DNA from: a virus
Strand: one strand, 5' to 3'
DNA length: 64,000 nt
Virus record (IMG/VR): IMGVR_UViG_3300023184_008416
Coordinates: 97,916 to 161,915 of that record
The notes under the pieces were generated by a model. It worked only from the letters and a program-made list of their open reading frames with translations, was not told the DNA's origin and searched no databases. Both the position numbers and the translations under genes were made by a program. Numbering within the stretch: the first letter of the stretch is position 1; each line of letters begins with the position of its first letter. This document shows, in pieces, positions 23,452 through 31,797 of this stretch.

Positions 23452-24633
23452 ATGGCACGCAAGTTAAACGAAATCACAACAACACAAACCAAATCTCCCG
23501 CTGATGATATTGCTTCACAACTCATCAAAGATTTAAATAAAACATTTGGAACCAGGGTTGCATATAACCTCAGTGAAGATGAAGCTCCCACGGTCGTGAA
23601 GCGTTGGATTGATACAGGCTCAATTCAACTTGATTATGCAATCAGAAACAGCACCGATGGTGGTTACCCAGAAGGAAGAATCATAGAAATTTCAGGCCTA
23701 CCATCATCAGGAAAATCTCACCTCGCTTATCATGCAGCTGCAGTAACACAAAAGTTAGGTGGGTTAGTCGTCTATGTAGACACAGAAAATGCGACTCCTG
23801 TGCAGAAGCTGGCTAACATGGGGATTGATGTTGCGCATAGATTTGTTTATTGCGACACACACTGTACAGAAGAAGTTTTTGCTATCATTGAGTCGACGAT
23901 TCTTAAAGCAAAACAAATCATTGATAAAAACGTTCCAATCTTGGTCATCTGGGACTCTGTGGCAGCGACTTCTCCCAAGGCCGAGTTGGAAGGCGAGTAT
24001 GATCAGAATTCCATGGGTCTGCAGGCTCGAGTCATTTCAAAGGGCATGCGTAAAATTACGGGTGTCATCGGGCAGAATAACGTCACCCTGCTCTGTTTGA
24101 ATCAAATTCGTGATAATATTGGAGTGATGCATGGAGATCCATTGACCACCCCTGGTGGCCGTGCGATTCCCTTTCATGCTTCAGTTAGAATTCGTTTGGG
24201 TTCTGGTAGTCCTGTCAAAGACAAGGCTGGCAATATCATTGGCATTCATACGACTGTGACGATTAAGAAAAATAAGGTCGCTGCACCCTTTCGTAAGTGT
24301 GAGTTTGATATTATCTTTGGGAAGGGTATTGTCGAGGATGAATATCTTTTTGATGAAGTCCGGTCACATTGCAAAGAATCAGGTCCTGTTAAACGAGGAG
24401 GCAAAGACATTAATATTTCCGGCGAAGGTGCATGGAAAGAGTTGGTTGTCACCGACACAAAAACGGGTGAAGTGTTGCTTGAAAAGAAATTTTATAAATC
24501 GGAATTTGGAGAAATGTTAAAGGATGACAAGTACAGGGAATACATAATGTCAGCAATTGATTCAGCACTCACTTTGGTCGGAGGTGAACCATCCGGTGAA
24601 GGCGACGGCGAAGGAGAAACAAGCGATGAGTAA
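23452..24633 (+). CDS. recA: RecA/UvsX recombinase
   Basis: TGSIQLD, GRIIEISGLPSSGKS (Walker A), IWDSVAA, LQAR, NQIR, TPGGRAIPFHASVRI, KNKVAAPF. Confidence 0.95.
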   Translation: MARKLNEITTTQTKSPADDIASQLIKDLNKTFGTRVAYNLSEDEAPTVVKRWIDTGSIQLDYAIRNSTDGGYPEGRIIEISGLPSSGKSHLAYHAAAVTQKLGGLVVYVDTENATPVQKLANMGIDVAHRFVYCDTHCTEEVFAIIESTILKAKQIIDKNVPILVIWDSVAATSPKAELEGEYDQNSMGLQARVISKGMRKITGVIGQNNVTLLCLNQIRDNIGVMHGDPLTTPGGRAIPFHASVRIRLGSGSPVKDKAGNIIGIHTTVTIKKNKVAAPFRKCEFDIIFGKGIVEDEYLFDEVRSHCKESGPVKRGGKDINISGEGAWKELVVTDTKTGEVLLEKKFYKSEFGEMLKDDKYREYIMSAIDSALTLVGGEPSGEGDGEGETSDE

Positions 24634-25081: not shown

Positions 25082-26031
25082 TGACAATTGACAAATCAAT
25101 TCTTATAATTGATGGATCAAACATGTTTATTAGGTGTTATAGCGCCTGCCCTGACATGTCATTACATGGTCACCAGGTCGGTGGAACGATAGGCTCTTTG
25201 AGGACATTACGTCGTCTTTTAAATGAATTGCAACCTTCAGCCTTGTATCTTGTTTGGGAGGGTGGAGGTTCGTCTCGACGAAAGAGTCTGTTTTCTGAGT
25301 ACAAAGAAAATCGTCGACCTGAAAAGCTGAATAGATTCTACGAAGATGATATTCCAGATTCAGACGACAATCGTCAACATCAGCTTGTGACTCTGATTAA
25401 TTTGGTTAGGTTTCTTCCAATTAGACAATTATATGTTTCTGACTGTGAGGGAGATGATGTCATTGCTTTTTTGTGCAGAGGACCACTACGAGGTTTAAAT
25501 AAAGTTATTGCATCTTCTGATAAAGACATGTATCAACTTTTAGATCCTTTGACGAGGACATACTCCTTTCACAAGAAACGTTATGTTACAACTCAAGACG
25601 TGTTAGAAGAATTTAGAATATCTTGTGTCAATTTTTCTCTGGCCAAATCACTGTGTGGTGATCCGTCAGACAACATACCCGGTGTTGAGGGATTAGGTTT
25701 TAGGACAGTGGCAAAAAAATTCCCGTTTTTGGGATCAGATAATCCAATTATTTTACAAGATATTTTTGATTATTGTCACTCACGCGCAAAAGAATCTATC
25801 ATTTATCGTCGAGTTTTGGAACACCGTGACGAGGTGGAAAGAAATTGGCGTTTAATTCACCTAGATGTTACATCGCTTGCTCCAGAGCAAATAAAACGTA
25901 TTGAAACACAACTTAGTACATCAATACCCAAGGGGGATAGGATGTCACTAATTCGAGGTCTGGTTCAAGAGGGAATCGGAGATTTTGATGTTGAATCAAT
26001 GTTCTACGCTTTTAACTGTCTAGAACGATAG
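25081..26031 (+). CDS. 5'-3' exonuclease / flap endonuclease (T4 RNase H-like)
   Basis: IIDGSN, EYKENR, EGDDVI, SSDKD..QL, GDPSDNIPGV.G.G. Confidence 0.92.
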   Translation: MTIDKSILIIDGSNMFIRCYSACPDMSLHGHQVGGTIGSLRTLRRLLNELQPSALYLVWEGGGSSRRKSLFSEYKENRRPEKLNRFYEDDIPDSDDNRQHQLVTLINLVRFLPIRQLYVSDCEGDDVIAFLCRGPLRGLNKVIASSDKDMYQLLDPLTRTYSFHKKRYVTTQDVLEEFRISCVNFSLAKSLCGDPSDNIPGVEGLGFRTVAKKFPFLGSDNPIILQDIFDYCHSRAKESIIYRRVLEHRDEVERNWRLIHLDVTSLAPEQIKRIETQLSTSIPKGDRMSLIRGLVQEGIGDFDVESMFYAFNCLER

Positions 26032-26038
26032 GAAAATC

Positions 26039-26833
26039 ATGTCAGAAATTACAGAATCTACAGGTCTTAACAAAGTCAACTTTGGAACCTATGGCAAACA
26101 CTTTCAAGAGTGTGTCATGGCGGGTCTGCTCACAGACAATAGATGGGCAGAGCAAATGATGGAAGTATTTGATACAGAATATTTTGAACTCAAATACCTT
26201 CGATTCTTGGCCGAGAAGTACTTTGCTTATTCTCGCAAATACAAGGTTTTTCCTACCTTACAACTTCTTGCAACAATTATTAGAGAGGATCTAAAGACGG
26301 GATCAGACGCTCTTTTGCGTGATCAGATCATCGATTATTTGACTCGAATCAGAGCCAATCCGATGACCAACGACATGCAATATGCCAAAGAAAAATCTCT
26401 TGATTTTTGCAAGAAACAAGCCTTGAAGCATGCGTTGGAAACTGCAGTGGATCAGATGCAGGCAGAAAAATACGAGTCAATCGTTGAGACCATTCGTCGA
26501 GCAGTCTCTGTTGGAACAGTCCCCGCAGTTGGACATGATTTTTTGAATGACATGGAGGCACGGTTCACTCGACAAAAAAGAGACACCATTCCAACTGGAT
26601 TGGCTGAACTTGACAAGAAAGAAATTTTTAACGGTGGTTCCGGTAAAGGAGAGCTGTACTGTGTGATTGGTTCAACCGGGGCAGGAAAGTGTAGTGTACG
26701 TGATACTTATATTCACGTCAGATACACAACAATCAAAATCAATGGAAAATCCTACAAGCCTTGGGACAAGATCAGAACCCAAAGAGGCGAAATTTTTGTA
26801 AGAGACATCGTCAAATCAGACGAGCTCCTGTAA
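26039..26833 (+). CDS. dnaB: Replicative helicase DnaB/gp41, N-terminal fragment + split intein N part (IntN, aa 218-264)
   Basis: IPTGLAELD...GEL..VIGSTGAGK then CSVRDTYIHVR (intein block A, Cys codon at 26690), stop 47 aa later. Confidence 0.9.
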   Translation: MSEITESTGLNKVNFGTYGKHFQECVMAGLLTDNRWAEQMMEVFDTEYFELKYLRFLAEKYFAYSRKYKVFPTLQLLATIIREDLKTGSDALLRDQIIDYLTRIRANPMTNDMQYAKEKSLDFCKKQALKHALETAVDQMQAEKYESIVETIRRAVSVGTVPAVGHDFLNDMEARFTRQKRDTIPTGLAELDKKEIFNGGSGKGELYCVIGSTGAGKCSVRDTYIHVRYTTIKINGKSYKPWDKIRTQRGEIFVRDIVKSDELL

Positions 26834-27938
26834 CAAATGTGTTTATTGTGATAGGACTTATGTTTCCCACAGCGGATTGGTAAGTCATCTAAGAAAGAAG
26901 CATGGACAAACTTATCGAGATTACAGGACACAAAATGGAATTTTGACAAAACGTCAGCAAAATCCTGCAAAAAACACAGTTAGAGAGAAAATGAAACAAC
27001 GGCAGCAGGAATTATTTCAGCAAGGGCTCGCTGAAGGTTTATCTCCTATGAAGTGTTTAATTTGTGGTTTTGAGTCGATGTTTACGTTGATTAGTCATAT
27101 TTCTATGAAACATCAAATTACTACCGATGTCTATAGGGAAAAATTTGGTATTGAAAAAATACAACAAATTTTGCCATCGCAGAGACAAGTTATAAGATCA
27201 ATTGTAAAAGAAGCAATGAACAGGCCTGACGTCAAGGAGAGAGTTGCTTTGAAAAGGTCGTTTCCATCCGAGAAAAAGCATTGGCTTAATAAAGGTTTTA
27301 CAGATGATGAGGCATCGAAAAAAGTCTCTGAATTTCAAAGAAGCATGGCTCTTCGAGCCGATGAGGAAACAAGAGCAAAATTATCGCAAAAGTCTCGTGG
27401 TAAAAATAATCCAATGTCAATTGAGTCAATCGCAAAAAGACACGGAGTTTCCCACGAAGAAGCGCGGCTTCTTACTCCGGCATGTGGTAGGTCTGGAGAA
27501 TTACATCCAATGTGGGGGAAACGTCACACGCAAGAATCTTTGGAAAAGATTGCCTCATCTCGGCACCTCACAGATCCGACGTGGAGATCAAAACCAGAAA
27601 TTCAGCTTGAGGAATGGTGTAAGTCTGTGTTCGGTGAATCTCAGGTGAAGGCAAACACAAAGATTAGCAGGTGGAATATTGACATCCTCATTCAGGAAAA
27701 AAAGTTAATTGTTGAATTGTTTGGAGATTTTTGGCACATGAATCCTGACAAATTTTTGGAAACTGACGTCAATAAAATCACCAATAAGGTAGCAAAAGAA
27801 ATATGGCAGCACGATCTTAAAAAACTTGAATATCTGAAGACAAATGGTTACAATGTTTTAGTGGTGTGGGAACGTGACTGGAAGTTAAACCAGGAGCAGA
27901 CAAAGGAAAGAATAAAAGATGCTTACAATCGAGTTTGA
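26820..27938 (+). mobile_element. Free-standing homing endonuclease (C2H2 fingers, NUMOD3-like, Vsr/EDxHD-like nuclease) between the split intein halves; start codon uncertain
   Basis: HPMWGKRHTQES, IDILI..KKLIVELFGDFWH...D..K...GYNVLVVWERD; frame is open upstream of TTG 26877 and encodes the CVYC half of the first finger. Confidence 0.85.
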
Positions 27939-29196
27939 CAGTGTGGAAGAACAGATTAAAATCGGTGATTTGTTTGACCAAATTGGATTTGAACAAACAT
28001 CACGTCCCACCGACGATTCTGGTGACTCATTCATCAAGAACGATTGGTCAATTGAAGCGCTTTCACTGGATGGGTATTATCCTGTAGAAGGTTTTCGATG
28101 GACAAAACCGGAACGTAAGATGCAGATCGCTCACAGGAGCATCAACCCATTTATCTTGGAGGATCAAATTCCGACTCTCGACTGCTCACCAGAGCACCTG
28201 CTTTTAAAGAGGGTCTCTGAGACTGAGTTTCAATGGGTGGAAGCCAAGACGTTACTTGAAAATGATGTCATTGTTGGATCCTTTGGTTCTTTAAGAAAAG
28301 TTGTCTGTGCATTACCTCTCGATCAAGCTGATGAACGACTCTGTGATTTGCAGGTGTCAATTGCACACTCGTATATGACAAATGGTATCTTGTCTCATAA
28401 CTCTCACTTTTTGACAATGATTGGGGCCAATGCCCTGCAGGACGGCCGCAATGTTTTGCATTACACCTTTGAATTATCTGAAACTTCTGTCGGAACCCGG
28501 TACGATTCCAACCTTTGTGATATAGATTCCAATGAGGTGATGGATCGTAAAGAAGAGGTCAAATCATCCTATGAGAAGATGAAGTTAGGTCGACTGTTCA
28601 TTAAAGAATACCCAACTAATTCTGCATCCATTTTTACCCTTAGAGCTCACATTGAACGTTTGGATTTGAAAGGATTCAAACCCGATATTATCATTATTGA
28701 CTATGCCGACATCATGAGATCAACACGCCAGTATGATTCTTTGAGACATGAGTTGAAATTGGTGTACGAAGAGTTACGTGCTATGGCAATGGAACTAGGA
28801 GTACCTGTTTGGACAGCGTCTCAATCAAACAAAGAAGGTGCCAATAGCGATGTTATTGATGTTACTAACATGAGCGAGGCATATGGCAAAGCGATGATTT
28901 GCGATGCTATCGTGACAATTTCTAGAAAGGCTCATGAGAAATCAACGGGATGGGGTCGATTATTTGTCGCTAAAAACCGTGCAGGCAGAGATGGATTAGT
29001 TTATCCAGTGCAGATTAACACGGCTCGGTCCAAGTTTACCATTGTGGGTAATGCGGGAAGCCCAGAACAAGTGTCTGCAGAAAATGACGCAGAAATGAAA
29101 AAAGCCTTACGAGATAAATGGAGAGAGTTACAAAGTGAAATGTCTTTTATTCCGTCAACAAAAGGCGAGTTACCTAGAACAGGAACAGATAGTTAA
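27919..29196 (+). CDS. dnaB: Split intein C part (IntC, 161 aa) + C-terminal fragment of DnaB helicase
   Basis: Block B CSPEH, block F/G CDLQV..AHSYMTNGILSHN|S (Ser+1 at 28402); then YTFEL, IIIDYAD (Walker B), WTASQ, AKNRAG. Confidence 0.92.
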   Translation: MLTIEFDSVEEQIKIGDLFDQIGFEQTSRPTDDSGDSFIKNDWSIEALSLDGYYPVEGFRWTKPERKMQIAHRSINPFILEDQIPTLDCSPEHLLLKRVSETEFQWVEAKTLLENDVIVGSFGSLRKVVCALPLDQADERLCDLQVSIAHSYMTNGILSHNSHFLTMIGANALQDGRNVLHYTFELSETSVGTRYDSNLCDIDSNEVMDRKEEVKSSYEKMKLGRLFIKEYPTNSASIFTLRAHIERLDLKGFKPDIIIIDYADIMRSTRQYDSLRHELKLVYEELRAMAMELGVPVWTASQSNKEGANSDVIDVTNMSEAYGKAMICDAIVTISRKAHEKSTGWGRLFVAKNRAGRDGLVYPVQINTARSKFTIVGNAGSPEQVSAENDAEMKKALRDKWRELQSEMSFIPSTKGELPRTGTDS

Positions 29197-29217
29197 GAAC
29201 CTCCGGAGTGTGATACA

Positions 29218-31797
29218 ATGATTACATACACAAGAGATGAAGCATTTGCAACATCATTGAAGTATTTCAATGGTGACGAATTGGCAAGTTCCGTATTCAT
29301 CGACAAATACGCATTAAAAGACTTGTCAGGAAAGCTCTTGGAACTGACTCCATCCGACATGCATCGTCGTTTGGCAAAGGAATTTGCTAGAGTCGAGAAG
29401 AAATATCCCAATCCGCTGTCTGAGAAGGAAATCTTTTGTTTGTTGGCAGATGTCAGCCATCTTGATGCGACCCAAATCGAGAAGATGTCTATCGATGAGT
29501 TGGCCGCCGAGTCTAGAGGATTGGGAGCCGTTATTCCCCAGGGGTCTCCCATGTCGGCGATTGGTAACGATTTTCAATACCAGTCTTTGTCCAATTGCTT
29601 TGTAATTCAGTCACCATACGATTCATACGCTGGCATCCTTAAGGCTGATCAAGAGCAAGCGCAGATCATGAAGCGCCGCGGCGGAGTTGGTTTTGACATC
29701 TCTACCATTCGACCAAAAGGTATCGTCACCGCCAATGCGGCTCGCACCACCGATGGCATCGGCGTATTCATGGAGAGGTTTTCCAATACGTGTCGAGAAG
29801 TTGCGCAAGGTGGAAGAAGGGGTGCTTTGATGCTTACCATCGATGTTCATCATCCCGAGATTCGCACCTTTATTAACATTAAACGTGACCTAAAGAAGGT
29901 TACTGGCGCCAACATCTCCATTCGCCTCTCCGATGAATTCATGCAGGCCGTGAAGGATGGGACCAAAGTTCAACTCAGGTTCCCAGTTGAAAAGGATGTC
30001 AAACACTCCATCGAAGAGATGGTAGACGCCAAGCAACTTTGGCACGAGATTATTGAGGCAGCGTGGGCTTCAGCAGAACCTGGTCTTCTTTTTTGGGATA
30101 CCGTAAAAAAGCGAACACCCACCGAGGCTTATGAAGCGTACAAGTCGCAATCAACCAACCCGTGTGGTGAGATCGTTTTGTCTCCGTATGATAGTTGCCG
30201 ATTGCTTCTCGTCAATCTCTATAAATTTGTAAAGAATCCATTTACATCGGCCGCTGCATATGACAGCAAGGGTCTCAAGGACGTTGTCGTAAAAGCTCAG
30301 CGGTTAATGGATGACCTCATCGACCTGGAGATTGAAGCGGTTGATAAGATCATAGAAAAGATCAAGAATGATCCTGAGCCAGAGGATGTCAAGAGATCCG
30401 AATTGGAGCTCTGGAACAAGATTAAATCGGTAGCTCTTGGTGGTCGTAGAACGGGTCTTGGCATTACGGCTCTTGGGGATGCCATTGCGGCCATGGGTTT
30501 TGTCTATGGTTCCAGCAAATCCATTGAAATGACAGAGTCTTTATATCGGGCATTGGCTCTTTCTGCTTACAAGTCGACAATCAAGATGGCTGAAGAGAGA
30601 GGGTCATTTCCTGCTTTTAAATATTCTTTGGAAAATAATCATCCATTCATTCAGCAGATTTTAGAGGCCGCTCCTGAGTTGAAAGAAGATTATTTGAAAT
30701 TTGGTCGCCGTAATATTGCGCTGACAACAACAGCTCCGGCAGGTTCAGTTTCTGTTCTTACCCAGACAACCTCTGGTATTGAGCCTGCTTTCATGTTGTT
30801 CTACAAACGTCGCAAAAAGGTCAACAGCGAAGATCCTAATGCCAGAGTGGATTTTGTGGATCCCCTTGGCGATAAGTGGCAAGAATACACTGTCTACCAT
30901 CACGCTTTTAAAGTCTGGATGGACGCCACCCATAAGACAGAGTTGGATGCCAAAGAATCGCCATACCATGGTGGAACAGCCAACGAGATTGATTGGCTAG
31001 CCAAGGTAGACCTTCAAGCCGTCGCTCAGCGATGGATCTGTCATTCGATCAGCAACACCACAAATATTCCAAATTCTACTTCCGTGGATGTGGTGAAAGA
31101 GATCTATATGCGTGGATGGGAGACTGGATGTAAGGGAGTTACAATTTATCGCGATGGTTGTCGAGCTGGCGTTCTCGTGGCCGACACCAAGAAAGAAGAC
31201 AAGAAGGCTGATGTTGATGGTCAACCGGAGTCCATGGTAGAAAGTCATGCACCAAAGAGGCCAAAGGAATTGCCATGTGACATTCGCAGAATAAACGTGA
31301 AGGGTTCTGGGGGTCCAGAATCATATCTCGTTCTGGTTGGTAAGTTGGCCGATAAACCATATGAGATCTTCTGCGGTTTGTCACAACACGTGGAGGTTCC
31401 CAAGAAAGCAAAGGTTGGAACCCTTATTAAGAATGGTAAGCGTGATGGAGTCGCAACATATAATCTTAGAATTCCATTGGGTGACGATGATGAGTTAGTG
31501 TTCAAAGATGTTGTAGAGCTGTTTGCAAATCCAACCAACGGTGCTTTCACTCGATCTCTGTCACTATCTTTACGACATGGAATTCCTGTCCAATACATCG
31601 TAGAGCAGTTACAAAAGGACAAACAGTCAGACATGCAAAGTTTTTCAAGAGTTTTGGCCAGAGTCCTTAAGGAATATATTCCTGATGGGACCAAGTCAAA
31701 CTCTGACAAAAAGTGTGATTCCTGTGGAGCTGATGGACTGATTTATAAAGAAGGTTGTGTGTCGTGCGTAAGTTGTGGTACAAGCAAATGCGGGTGA
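29218..31797 (+). CDS. nrdJ: Class II (adenosylcobalamin-dependent) ribonucleotide reductase
   Basis: SNCFV, GGVG, TNPCGEI, RRTGLG, APAGS, KGVTIYRDG, C-terminal Zn ribbon; no small subunit adjacent. Confidence 0.9.
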   Translation: MITYTRDEAFATSLKYFNGDELASSVFIDKYALKDLSGKLLELTPSDMHRRLAKEFARVEKKYPNPLSEKEIFCLLADVSHLDATQIEKMSIDELAAESRGLGAVIPQGSPMSAIGNDFQYQSLSNCFVIQSPYDSYAGILKADQEQAQIMKRRGGVGFDISTIRPKGIVTANAARTTDGIGVFMERFSNTCREVAQGGRRGALMLTIDVHHPEIRTFINIKRDLKKVTGANISIRLSDEFMQAVKDGTKVQLRFPVEKDVKHSIEEMVDAKQLWHEIIEAAWASAEPGLLFWDTVKKRTPTEAYEAYKSQSTNPCGEIVLSPYDSCRLLLVNLYKFVKNPFTSAAAYDSKGLKDVVVKAQRLMDDLIDLEIEAVDKIIEKIKNDPEPEDVKRSELELWNKIKSVALGGRRTGLGITALGDAIAAMGFVYGSSKSIEMTESLYRALALSAYKSTIKMAEERGSFPAFKYSLENNHPFIQQILEAAPELKEDYLKFGRRNIALTTTAPAGSVSVLTQTTSGIEPAFMLFYKRRKKVNSEDPNARVDFVDPLGDKWQEYTVYHHAFKVWMDATHKTELDAKESPYHGGTANEIDWLAKVDLQAVAQRWICHSISNTTNIPNSTSVDVVKEIYMRGWETGCKGVTIYRDGCRAGVLVADTKKEDKKADVDGQPESMVESHAPKRPKELPCDIRRINVKGSGGPESYLVLVGKLADKPYEIFCGLSQHVEVPKKAKVGTLIKNGKRDGVATYNLRIPLGDDDELVFKDVVELFANPTNGAFTRSLSLSLRHGIPVQYIVEQLQKDKQSDMQSFSRVLARVLKEYIPDGTKSNSDKKCDSCGADGLIYKEGCVSCVSCGTSKCG

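Follow-up and report, generated by a model that had tools for sequence, protein, structure and literature searches.

How does a phage make its replicative helicase when the helicase gene is broken inside the Walker A motif? This question is raised by a locus at positions 26039-29196 of a 64,000-nucleotide stretch of viral DNA (the window), which is the final 64 kb of the 161,915-bp IMG/VR viral contig IMGVR_UViG_3300023184_008416. At this locus, a helicase of the DnaB/gp41 family is encoded in two pieces by separate open reading frames (ORFs), and an endonuclease ORF lies between them. We conclude that this is very probably a genuine fractured gene. The helicase would be made as two polypeptides, each carrying one half of an intein that is split at an early position of its fold (S1) and is predicted to splice in trans, with a free-standing endonuclease gene between the halves.

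A helicase gene broken within its Walker A motif

The ORF list places ORF A, the endonuclease ORF, and ORF C head to tail on the plus strand, in three different frames (2, 0, and 1, respectively). ORF A (26039-26833) encodes a 217-residue N-extein ending ...CVIGSTGAGK, followed by a 47-residue N-terminal intein half (IntN), CSVRDTYIHVRYTTIKINGKSYKPWDKIRTQRGEIFVRDIVKSDELL, and a stop codon. IntN opens CSVRDTYIHVRY and closes ...SDELL. ORF C (27919-29196) opens MLTIEFDSVEEQIKIGDLF and encodes a 161-residue C-terminal intein half (IntC) that ends SHN, and then the C-extein from SHFL. IntC contains intein block B (LDCSPEH) and blocks F and G (LCDLQVSIAHSYMTNGILSHN), which run directly into SHFLTMIGAN.... 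The N-half is made up of helicase residues 1-217 plus IntN and the C-half of IntC plus helicase residues 218-481, and the Walker A motif is divided between the two. The endonuclease ORF was listed at 26877-27938, but the same frame is open from 26802, giving 353-378 codons. The features of the locus are as follows:

26039-26689, plus strand: N-extein, helicase residues 1-217, ending at the Walker A start GSTGAGK (ORF list; partial match to TIGR03600 phage_DnaB)
26690-26833, plus strand: IntN, 47 residues, CSVRDTYIHVRY plus the extension TTIKINGKSYKPWDKIRTQRGEIFVRDIVKSDELL, with stop codon TAA at 26831-26833 (residue conservation, shared stop)
26802-27938, plus strand: free-standing putative homing-endonuclease ORF, open frame of 378 codons (Pfam matches, Vsr profile match, alignment)
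26838-26903, plus strand: C2H2-like finger 1 of the endonuclease (homologue alignment)
27054-27113, plus strand: C2H2-like finger 2 of the endonuclease (homologue alignment)
About 27399-27551, plus strand: NUMOD3 motifs of the endonuclease (Pfam NUMOD3, alignment)
About 27588-27935, plus strand: Vsr-like nuclease of the endonuclease ORF (profile match to Escherichia coli Vsr)
27903-27921, plus strand: AAGGA Shine-Dalgarno-like motif and ORF C ATG, inside the last endonuclease codons, with a 20-nucleotide overlap (sequence)
27919-28401, plus strand: IntC, 161 residues, with strand and helix EEQIKIGDLFDQ, block B LDCSPEH (His93), and blocks F/G LCDLQVSIAHSYMTNGILSHN (His160-Asn161) (conservation, hidden Markov model alignment to gp41-1 and VidaL)
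28402-29196, plus strand: C-extein, helicase C-half, 264 residues from Ser+1, with DnaB_C (Pfam DnaB_C)

ORF C matched PF03796 DnaB_C with an E value of 1.3e-14 (54.7 bits; cutoff, 27), and the N-extein shares 62-82% identity with N-halves and intein-less helicases from related contigs. Around the helicase is a replication module with a RecA-like gene, a dUTPase, a 5'-3' exonuclease, and a class II-like ribonucleotide reductase. CheckV estimated the contig to be only about 45% complete. Therefore, its source is probably a large uncultured phage.

The first-pass annotation of this DNA had described a fractured dnaB gene whose Walker A motif is cut as GSTGAGK↓C before a stop codon (arrows mark intein junctions), with a separate ORF that carries blocks B, F, and G and ends its intein half SHN↓SHFL, all spread over three ORFs in three frames. 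The cut is there in ORF A and the blocks in ORF C. Assignment to the dnaB family agrees with the DnaB_C match and with contiguous intein-less relatives (see below).

The intein halves are conserved and constrained

In all 15 N-halves and contiguous alleles aligned, the residue directly after GK is Cys1; W25 and T30.RG.I..RD of IntN are conserved. On the other side of the break, His93, Asp143, His150, His160, and Asn161 are invariant in 103 sequences, as are S162 (Ser+1) and H163. The class-1 residue set is therefore complete: Cys1, the block B His, the His-Asn of blocks F and G, and Ser+1. IntC matched TIGR01443 intein_Cterm just above its threshold (15.8 versus a cutoff of 15.6), and its block B CSPEH aligns to CSEEH of the solved gp41-1 intein. 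A profile of the family matched the solved inteins gp41-1 (6e-11), VidaL (3e-10), PolB16 (2e-6), and CatC (6dsl_B, 1.4e-4), and also NrdJ-1.

The intein of P0042, one of the contiguous alleles described below, was modelled by AlphaFold2 with the family alignment. It was predicted to be a single domain (predicted local distance difference test [pLDDT] score, 91.7; predicted template modelling score, 0.87). VidaL (6vgv) ranked first in a Foldseek search with this model (E value, 3e-8), and VIA-align superposed the model on many solved inteins (Z 18-19; root mean square deviation, about 2 Å; 125-157 residues), with the alignments running from Cys1 through to the terminal Asn. These matches are much stronger than chance would give. 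The two halves together are thus predicted to make up one class-1 HINT domain.

One alternative is that the locus is decaying, with intein halves that no longer splice and a helicase that is dead or works as a noncovalent two-piece enzyme. Decay of a sort is visible in the endonuclease, which is without its usual ATG in the window, is frameshifted in one related locus (L043), and is cut to 34 residues in another (L004). However, we compared the window with a related contig, L085, and the ratios of nonsynonymous to synonymous substitution (dN/dS, Nei-Gojobori) were 0.03 in both the N-extein and IntN, 0.04 in IntC, 0.08 in the C-extein, and 0.10 in the endonuclease. Constraint on the intein halves equals that on the helicase itself, which argues against a decaying element. 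Also, Cys1, His93, Asp143, His160, Asn161, and Ser+1 are all invariant. Furthermore, the break is inside the P-loop, and a helicase with an interrupted Walker A P-loop does not bind ATP unless the motif is rejoined. We regard decay of the intein as improbable.

The layout recurs in independent viral contigs

A scan of viral contigs with ORF C gave 80 loci, and their junctions were compared by tblastn with the five parts of the locus and by inspection. The same three-ORF, three-frame order was present in L002/L003, L005, L006, L007, L013, L043, and L071, at 40-65% amino acid identity. Each of these loci has the same +1 frame steps, a stop codon after a 47-residue IntN, and an IntC ATG within the last endonuclease codons. 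L085, which comes from a different study (the paired L085 and L088 share the layout), is 88-90% identical to the window in DNA sequence and colinear with it, with no insertions or deletions over 3.2 kb. In total, the layout was found in at least nine independent viral contigs, at 40-90% identity. The division into 47 and 161 residues proposed in the first-pass annotation also held, with the same break in 10 of 10 aligned split N-halves. In addition, when 5.8 billion proteins were searched with the IntC region, 107 clusters were found, about 100 of which are C-halves of approximately 410-425 residues that start ML(S/T)IE. Because the stops, starts, and frames recur in independent contigs and protein clusters, the layout is not an assembly artefact.

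This recurrence bears on a second alternative, in which assembly or sequencing frameshifts have broken one continuous maxi-intein with an internal endonuclease. The +1 frame step at each ORF and an endonuclease frame that is open before its first canonical start speak for it. However, the errors would have had to produce the same IntN stop, IntC ATG, and frame steps in independent assemblies from other samples, spare the 3.2 kb compared with L085, and give about 100 C-half clusters the same initial Met. Moreover, in L004 (3043-3147) the endonuclease is down to a 34-codon remnant, but the IntN stop and IntC ATG are both retained. In L043 (4017-5005), it is the endonuclease that is broken by a frameshift. 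We consider a broken maxi-intein very improbable. A third alternative, joining at the RNA level by a group I or group II intron that carries the endonuclease, is extremely improbable. Group I introns can also house Vsr-like endonucleases (Dassa et al. 2009, PMC2677866). However, an Rfam scan of 25900-29400 matched no family at E values up to 1, and hence no intron. The coding sequence on either side makes up a complete HINT domain that has the residues of both splice junctions, and contiguous protein-level alleles exist.

Intein-less helicase alleles were found in seven contigs (L008, L011, L022-L024, L063, and L073). Their N- and C-exteins are contiguous, and all read G(A/G)SGSGK↓SH(F/W)LTMIG. 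Because they read GK↓SH, excision of the intein would rebuild the Walker A motif, as the first-pass annotation had supposed. The insertion site here corresponds to the P-loop site of DnaB inteins known as insertion point b (Novikova et al. 2016, PMC4760082).

The break is predicted to be at position S1, with a long IntN

In the P0042 model, Cys1 is followed by a long strand (residues 7-17) and then by three short strands and a short helix, to about residue 47. The residues that start IntC form a long strand (IntC 2-12) that pairs back, and the first helix, GDLFD, comes next. Block A is in IntN, whereas the first helix (GDLFDQ) and blocks B, F, and G are in IntC.

We also predicted the complex of the window IntN plus 12 extein residues with IntC plus 8 extein residues, a check that the first-pass annotation had proposed. 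It scored 0.91, whereas the best of three controls scored 0.00. That mark was reached by 58 of 80 solved complexes and by 2 of 110 mismatched pairs. The runs agreed in at least 82% of contacts, with a partner pLDDT of at least 80. The most confident predicted contacts join IntN 6-11 with IntC 10-16 and 46-48 and the IntN tail (38-46) with the first IntC residues.

A second, independent line of support is a split recA intein in L024, which has an IntN of only 15 residues. Its IntC aligns to the window IntC from residue 10 (E value, 2e-10). Phmmer searches of PDB sequences gave no match with the N-terminal 86 residues of a contiguous intein or with the L024 recA IntC. There is therefore no residue-level alignment of the first strands to VidaL or PolB16, and the S1 call rests on the predicted contacts and the L024 comparison. 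By both, the HINT fold is broken at its S1 position, with the first helix and block B downstream. The earlier proposal of an atypical split near the N-terminus is thereby supported and refined.

IntN is 47 residues in 10 of 10 split N-halves aligned, with zero length variation. It can be divided into a core strand of about 12-15 residues and a conserved extension of about 32 residues (YKPWD, T.RG.I.ARD, DEL). The IntNs of characterized natural atypical split inteins are 15-37 residues long (PMC13014065, PMC10189870). The window IntN falls outside this range because of its extension, and it is the longest among natural atypical split inteins with available data.

The endonuclease ORF and its start

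The endonuclease matched Pfam NUMOD3 (1.2e-9) and ROS_MUCR (7.6e-7). An alignment of eight homologues has two C2H2-like fingers, two NUMOD3 motifs, and a C-terminal nuclease, with D294, E305, F307-G-D-x-W311-H312, D338, and W356-E357 invariant. The endonuclease profile matched E. coli Vsr (1vsr/1cw0) with an E value of 1.6e-6, and D...FWH...RD...VWE were aligned. In Vsr-like homing endonucleases, the motifs comprise a catalytic Asp, the His of FWH, a second Asp, and an extra invariant Glu that precedes the His by seven residues (Dassa et al. 2009, PMC2677866). The window nuclease has all of these motif residues, including the extra Glu. By sequence, it is a distant relative with a putative homing role, in agreement with the earlier description of it as free-standing and Vsr-like. 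A scan of viral contigs with the endonuclease protein found only three distant loci and was far less productive than the helicase scan.

The endonuclease ORF overlaps both intein halves. At its 3' end, an equivalent of the IntC start, (A)AAGGAT(A/C)AA(G)ATG, is kept in L002, L004-L007, and L071. At its 5' end, the usual endonuclease ATG is in the IntN codons S-D-E (tCAGATGaa), but in the window and L085 this codon is ACG (26820), which leaves the protein sequence of IntN unaltered. The window has its first canonical start, TTG, at 26877, where it separates the Cys pair of finger 1 from its His pair.

Where, then, would the endonuclease begin? Two outcomes are about equally likely. In one, translation starts noncanonically, either at ACG 26820 or by reinitiation coupled to the IntN stop, and includes finger 1. 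In the other, the product begins at TTG 26877 or downstream of it and lacks finger 1, or no product is made. The 14 codons from the IntN stop to TTG have five synonymous changes and one nonsynonymous change relative to L085 (dN/dS, 0.05), although fourteen codons are a small sample. This purifying selection implies that the stretch was translated until recently or still is, and ACG is common to both contigs. However, ACG is a poor bacterial start codon, it has no good Shine-Dalgarno motif upstream, and a 5-bp hairpin, TCGTC-AAATCA-GACGA (26808-26823), covers it. A shorter product is plausible in that the L071 endonuclease is naturally without finger 1. Loss of a start in the window phage may be recent, since L085 has TTG at the equivalent of 26808, where the window has TCG. 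L088 adds no independent data on this question because it shares 99% identity with L085 and its nuclease is interrupted by a scaffold gap. A programmed +1 frameshift joining IntN to the endonuclease was rejected as the principal explanation, because most homologues have their own ATG inside the end of IntN.

Split and contiguous alleles of one intein

Five contiguous helicases carry the intein with no endonuclease (P0009, P0016, P0042, P0050, and P0099; 658-682 residues), and in each the end of IntN runs straight into the start of IntC. These alleles are dispersed on the C-half tree, such that five changes are needed. P0050, which is represented by two independent assemblies, clusters with P0058 at branch lengths below 0.1, and the P0058 locus has the full layout of N-half, endonuclease, and C-half. 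Presence of the endonuclease therefore differs between close relatives, which is indirect support for site-specific cleavage and homing. One contiguous allele (L086:463-2466) reads TCAGATGGGTTTACAATAGAA at the fused junction.

Together, the alleles cover all stages of the cycle that Dassa et al. proposed. Some have no intein, some have a contiguous one, and in the rest the intein is split and the endonuclease is present, decayed, or absent. In the split loci L002 and L006, AGATG is found at both ends of the endonuclease cassette (..TCAGATG.. at its start and ..AAAGATG.. at the IntC start; window, 26810-26833 and 27910-27925). These shared ends may mark the point of endonuclease insertion or excision.

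Proposed assembly of the helicase

The fractured-gene reading suggests the following route. The core strand of IntN (intein residues about 2-12, block A) would insert between two IntC strands and so complete the class-1 HINT fold. The other IntN residues, about 32, and the first nine or so residues of IntC are predicted to fold together as an accessory beta module, on the tip of the first hairpin. Cys1 would form the thioester, Ser+1 would attack it, and Asn161 would cyclize, aided by His93, Asp143, and His160. Ligation of GSTGAGK to SHFL would then rebuild the Walker A P-loop at insertion point b. As for the cassette, it would bring the IntN stop and carry the IntC ribosome-binding site and ATG within its own 3' end. 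Because it supplies both, its invasion of a contiguous intein would split the intein without killing it, as the allele series suggests.

We tentatively extend this to a third natural architecture of atypical split intein. It would combine an S1 break, an IntN module of about 32 residues that works with the first IntC residues as a capture device or zipper to make trans-splicing of an essential helicase efficient, and a stop and start supplied by the cassette. We hold this extended version a little less likely than its opposite.

Several points weigh against our reading of the locus as a fractured gene with a working split intein and a homing endonuclease. Trans-splicing of the helicase halves is something that we infer, and the fold and interface of the intein are predictions. 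The complex score may reflect likeness to solved split inteins, and such predictions tend to pass the halves of split genes. The nuclease matches are below curated cutoffs (MTES_1575, 25.6 versus 38.2; DUF559, 18.8 versus 20.6; TIGR00632 vsr, 22.3 versus 97.85 bits). There is no ATG, GTG, or TTG before finger 1 in the window, and expression of the endonuclease in this phage is uncertain. Finally, with the contig at about 45% of the genome, a second, intact helicase could be located elsewhere. A second copy of the intein or endonuclease parts was not found in the whole 162-kb contig by tblastn.

Other features of the locus and inteins in neighboring genes

Seven promoter-like sites were found, versus 7.9 expected in shuffled sequence, and seven terminator-like sites, versus 2.9 expected; none of either kind was convincingly at an ORF boundary. 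Repeat scans found only short two-copy matches.

Two neighboring genes that are uninterrupted in the window are fractured in related phages. The ribonucleotide reductase (29218-31797) is intein-less here. In L085/L088 (L085:5316-9278) and L086 (2555-4966), a canonical split intein breaks this gene in two, with an IntN of about 85 residues and an IntC of 41 residues ending FYTSN↓C. A 318- to 320-residue ORF lies between those reductase halves, and its C-terminal ...FEFWEHD... looks nuclease-like by eye. The RecA-like gene (23452-24633) is intact in the window and reads ...NQIRDNIG↓VMHGDP.... In L024 (2-1580) and L022 (1148-2990), recA is fractured by an S1-type split intein with the 15-residue IntN CVGPSTQLTVRKRVA followed by a stop codon. 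The endonuclease at this recA locus is a full Vsr-like protein in L022 and a 73-residue remnant in L024. At L022:1-1164, immediately next to the endonuclease gene associated with recA, is an ORF that by eye resembles TnpB/IS605 OrfB.

Significance

Fractured genes (2009) and natural atypical split inteins (2014-2023) are already known, both as architecture and as idea. We found no description of this early-break helicase family in the searchable literature. Blastn with the locus found no match among GenBank phages, and tblastn against isolated GenBank phages found the C-extein only, at no more than 40% identity, with no intein. Therefore, no cultured phage in that collection carries the element. 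Relative to that literature and phage set, the family in the helicase P-loop, the 47-residue IntN with its conserved extension, the overlapping endonuclease cassette, and the natural pairs of split and contiguous alleles are new.

Natural atypically split inteins are few (those characterized are VidaL, PolB16, AceL-TerL, and GOS-TerL), and they are wanted in protein labelling and in semisynthesis. With this family comes a Cys1/Ser+1 example whose host site is new. Its approximately 100 natural variants and five contiguous siblings are raw material for engineering and consensus design. The first-pass annotation had proposed the intein as a new tool candidate. The candidate is a modest one, because its Cys1/Ser+1 chemistry is ordinary and the length of IntN stands in the way of easy synthesis unless the extension is dispensable. 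As the sister recA intein shows, a 15-residue IntN can suffice at the same position, so the role of the extension is directly testable. The allele series also documents the life cycle of a homing endonuclease within an essential gene of large uncultured phages. The family also has natural split and contiguous pairs that are less than 10% divergent. If the architecture proposed above is correct, with the stop and start supplied by the cassette, it would lend itself readily to work on how an intein can be split by an invading endonuclease and still function.

Comparison with known systems

Dassa et al. (2009, PMC2677866) described gp41-1 to gp41-9, NrdJ-1, IMPDH-1, and NrdA-2, in which genes are fractured by split inteins and the free-standing endonucleases are of the Vsr-like or GIY-YIG type. 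In that work, five split inteins, including gp41-1 and gp41-8, were modelled on a joined DnaE split-intein structure (PMC2677866). The window locus resembles these loci in having N-extein-IntN, endonuclease, and IntC-C-extein on one strand, in interrupting a phage replicative helicase, and in having a Vsr-like nuclease with NUMOD motifs. Endonuclease-free alleles occur in both (gp41-7 there and L004 here), and gp41-1 is matched by the family profile (6e-11). However, the Dassa loci have a noncoding spacer of 27-51 nucleotides before the endonuclease, whereas in the window the endonuclease overlaps both halves. Also, gp41-1 to gp41-7 are at position 356 of P-SSM2 gp41, whereas the window intein is in the P-loop. 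Characterized canonical split inteins have an IntN of about 100 residues and an IntC of about 35-50 residues (PMC10189870, PMC13014065). Unlike these, the window intein is broken before block B.

The closer parallels in break position are VidaL (6vgv; 16-residue IntN) and PolB16 OarG (8cpn; 15-residue IntN), in which, as predicted here, the first beta strands precede the break and the first helix follows it. VidaL and the P0042 model aligned over 144 of 145 residues (VIA Z, 18.5) and have Cys1 chemistry in common. The recA intein of sister phages, which is VidaL-like with a 15-residue IntN, aligns to the window IntC from residue 10. Unlike VidaL and PolB16, the window intein has an IntN of 47 rather than 15-16 residues (the YKPWD...T.RG.I.ARD...DEL extension), a DnaB P-loop as its host site, and Ser as its +1 residue. 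It is about 208 residues long overall, versus about 145 for VidaL.

AceL-TerL (25-residue IntN), GOS-TerL (37-residue IntN), and the engineered Cat intein likewise have a short IntN and a long IntC, and the TerL pair are natural and phage-derived. The likeness of the window family to CatC is weak (6dsl_B; E value, 1.4e-4). The break in AceL-TerL and GOS-TerL is at S2, after the first alpha helix (PMC13014065), whereas the first helix of the window intein is predicted to belong to IntC. Like the DnaB inteins at point b (for example, mycobacterial DnaBi1; PMC4760082), the window intein interrupts the Walker A motif. However, those cellular inteins are within single DnaB proteins, and some are class 3 (PMC4760082), whereas the one described here is a predicted class-1 intein, split, in a phage, and accompanied by a free-standing endonuclease.

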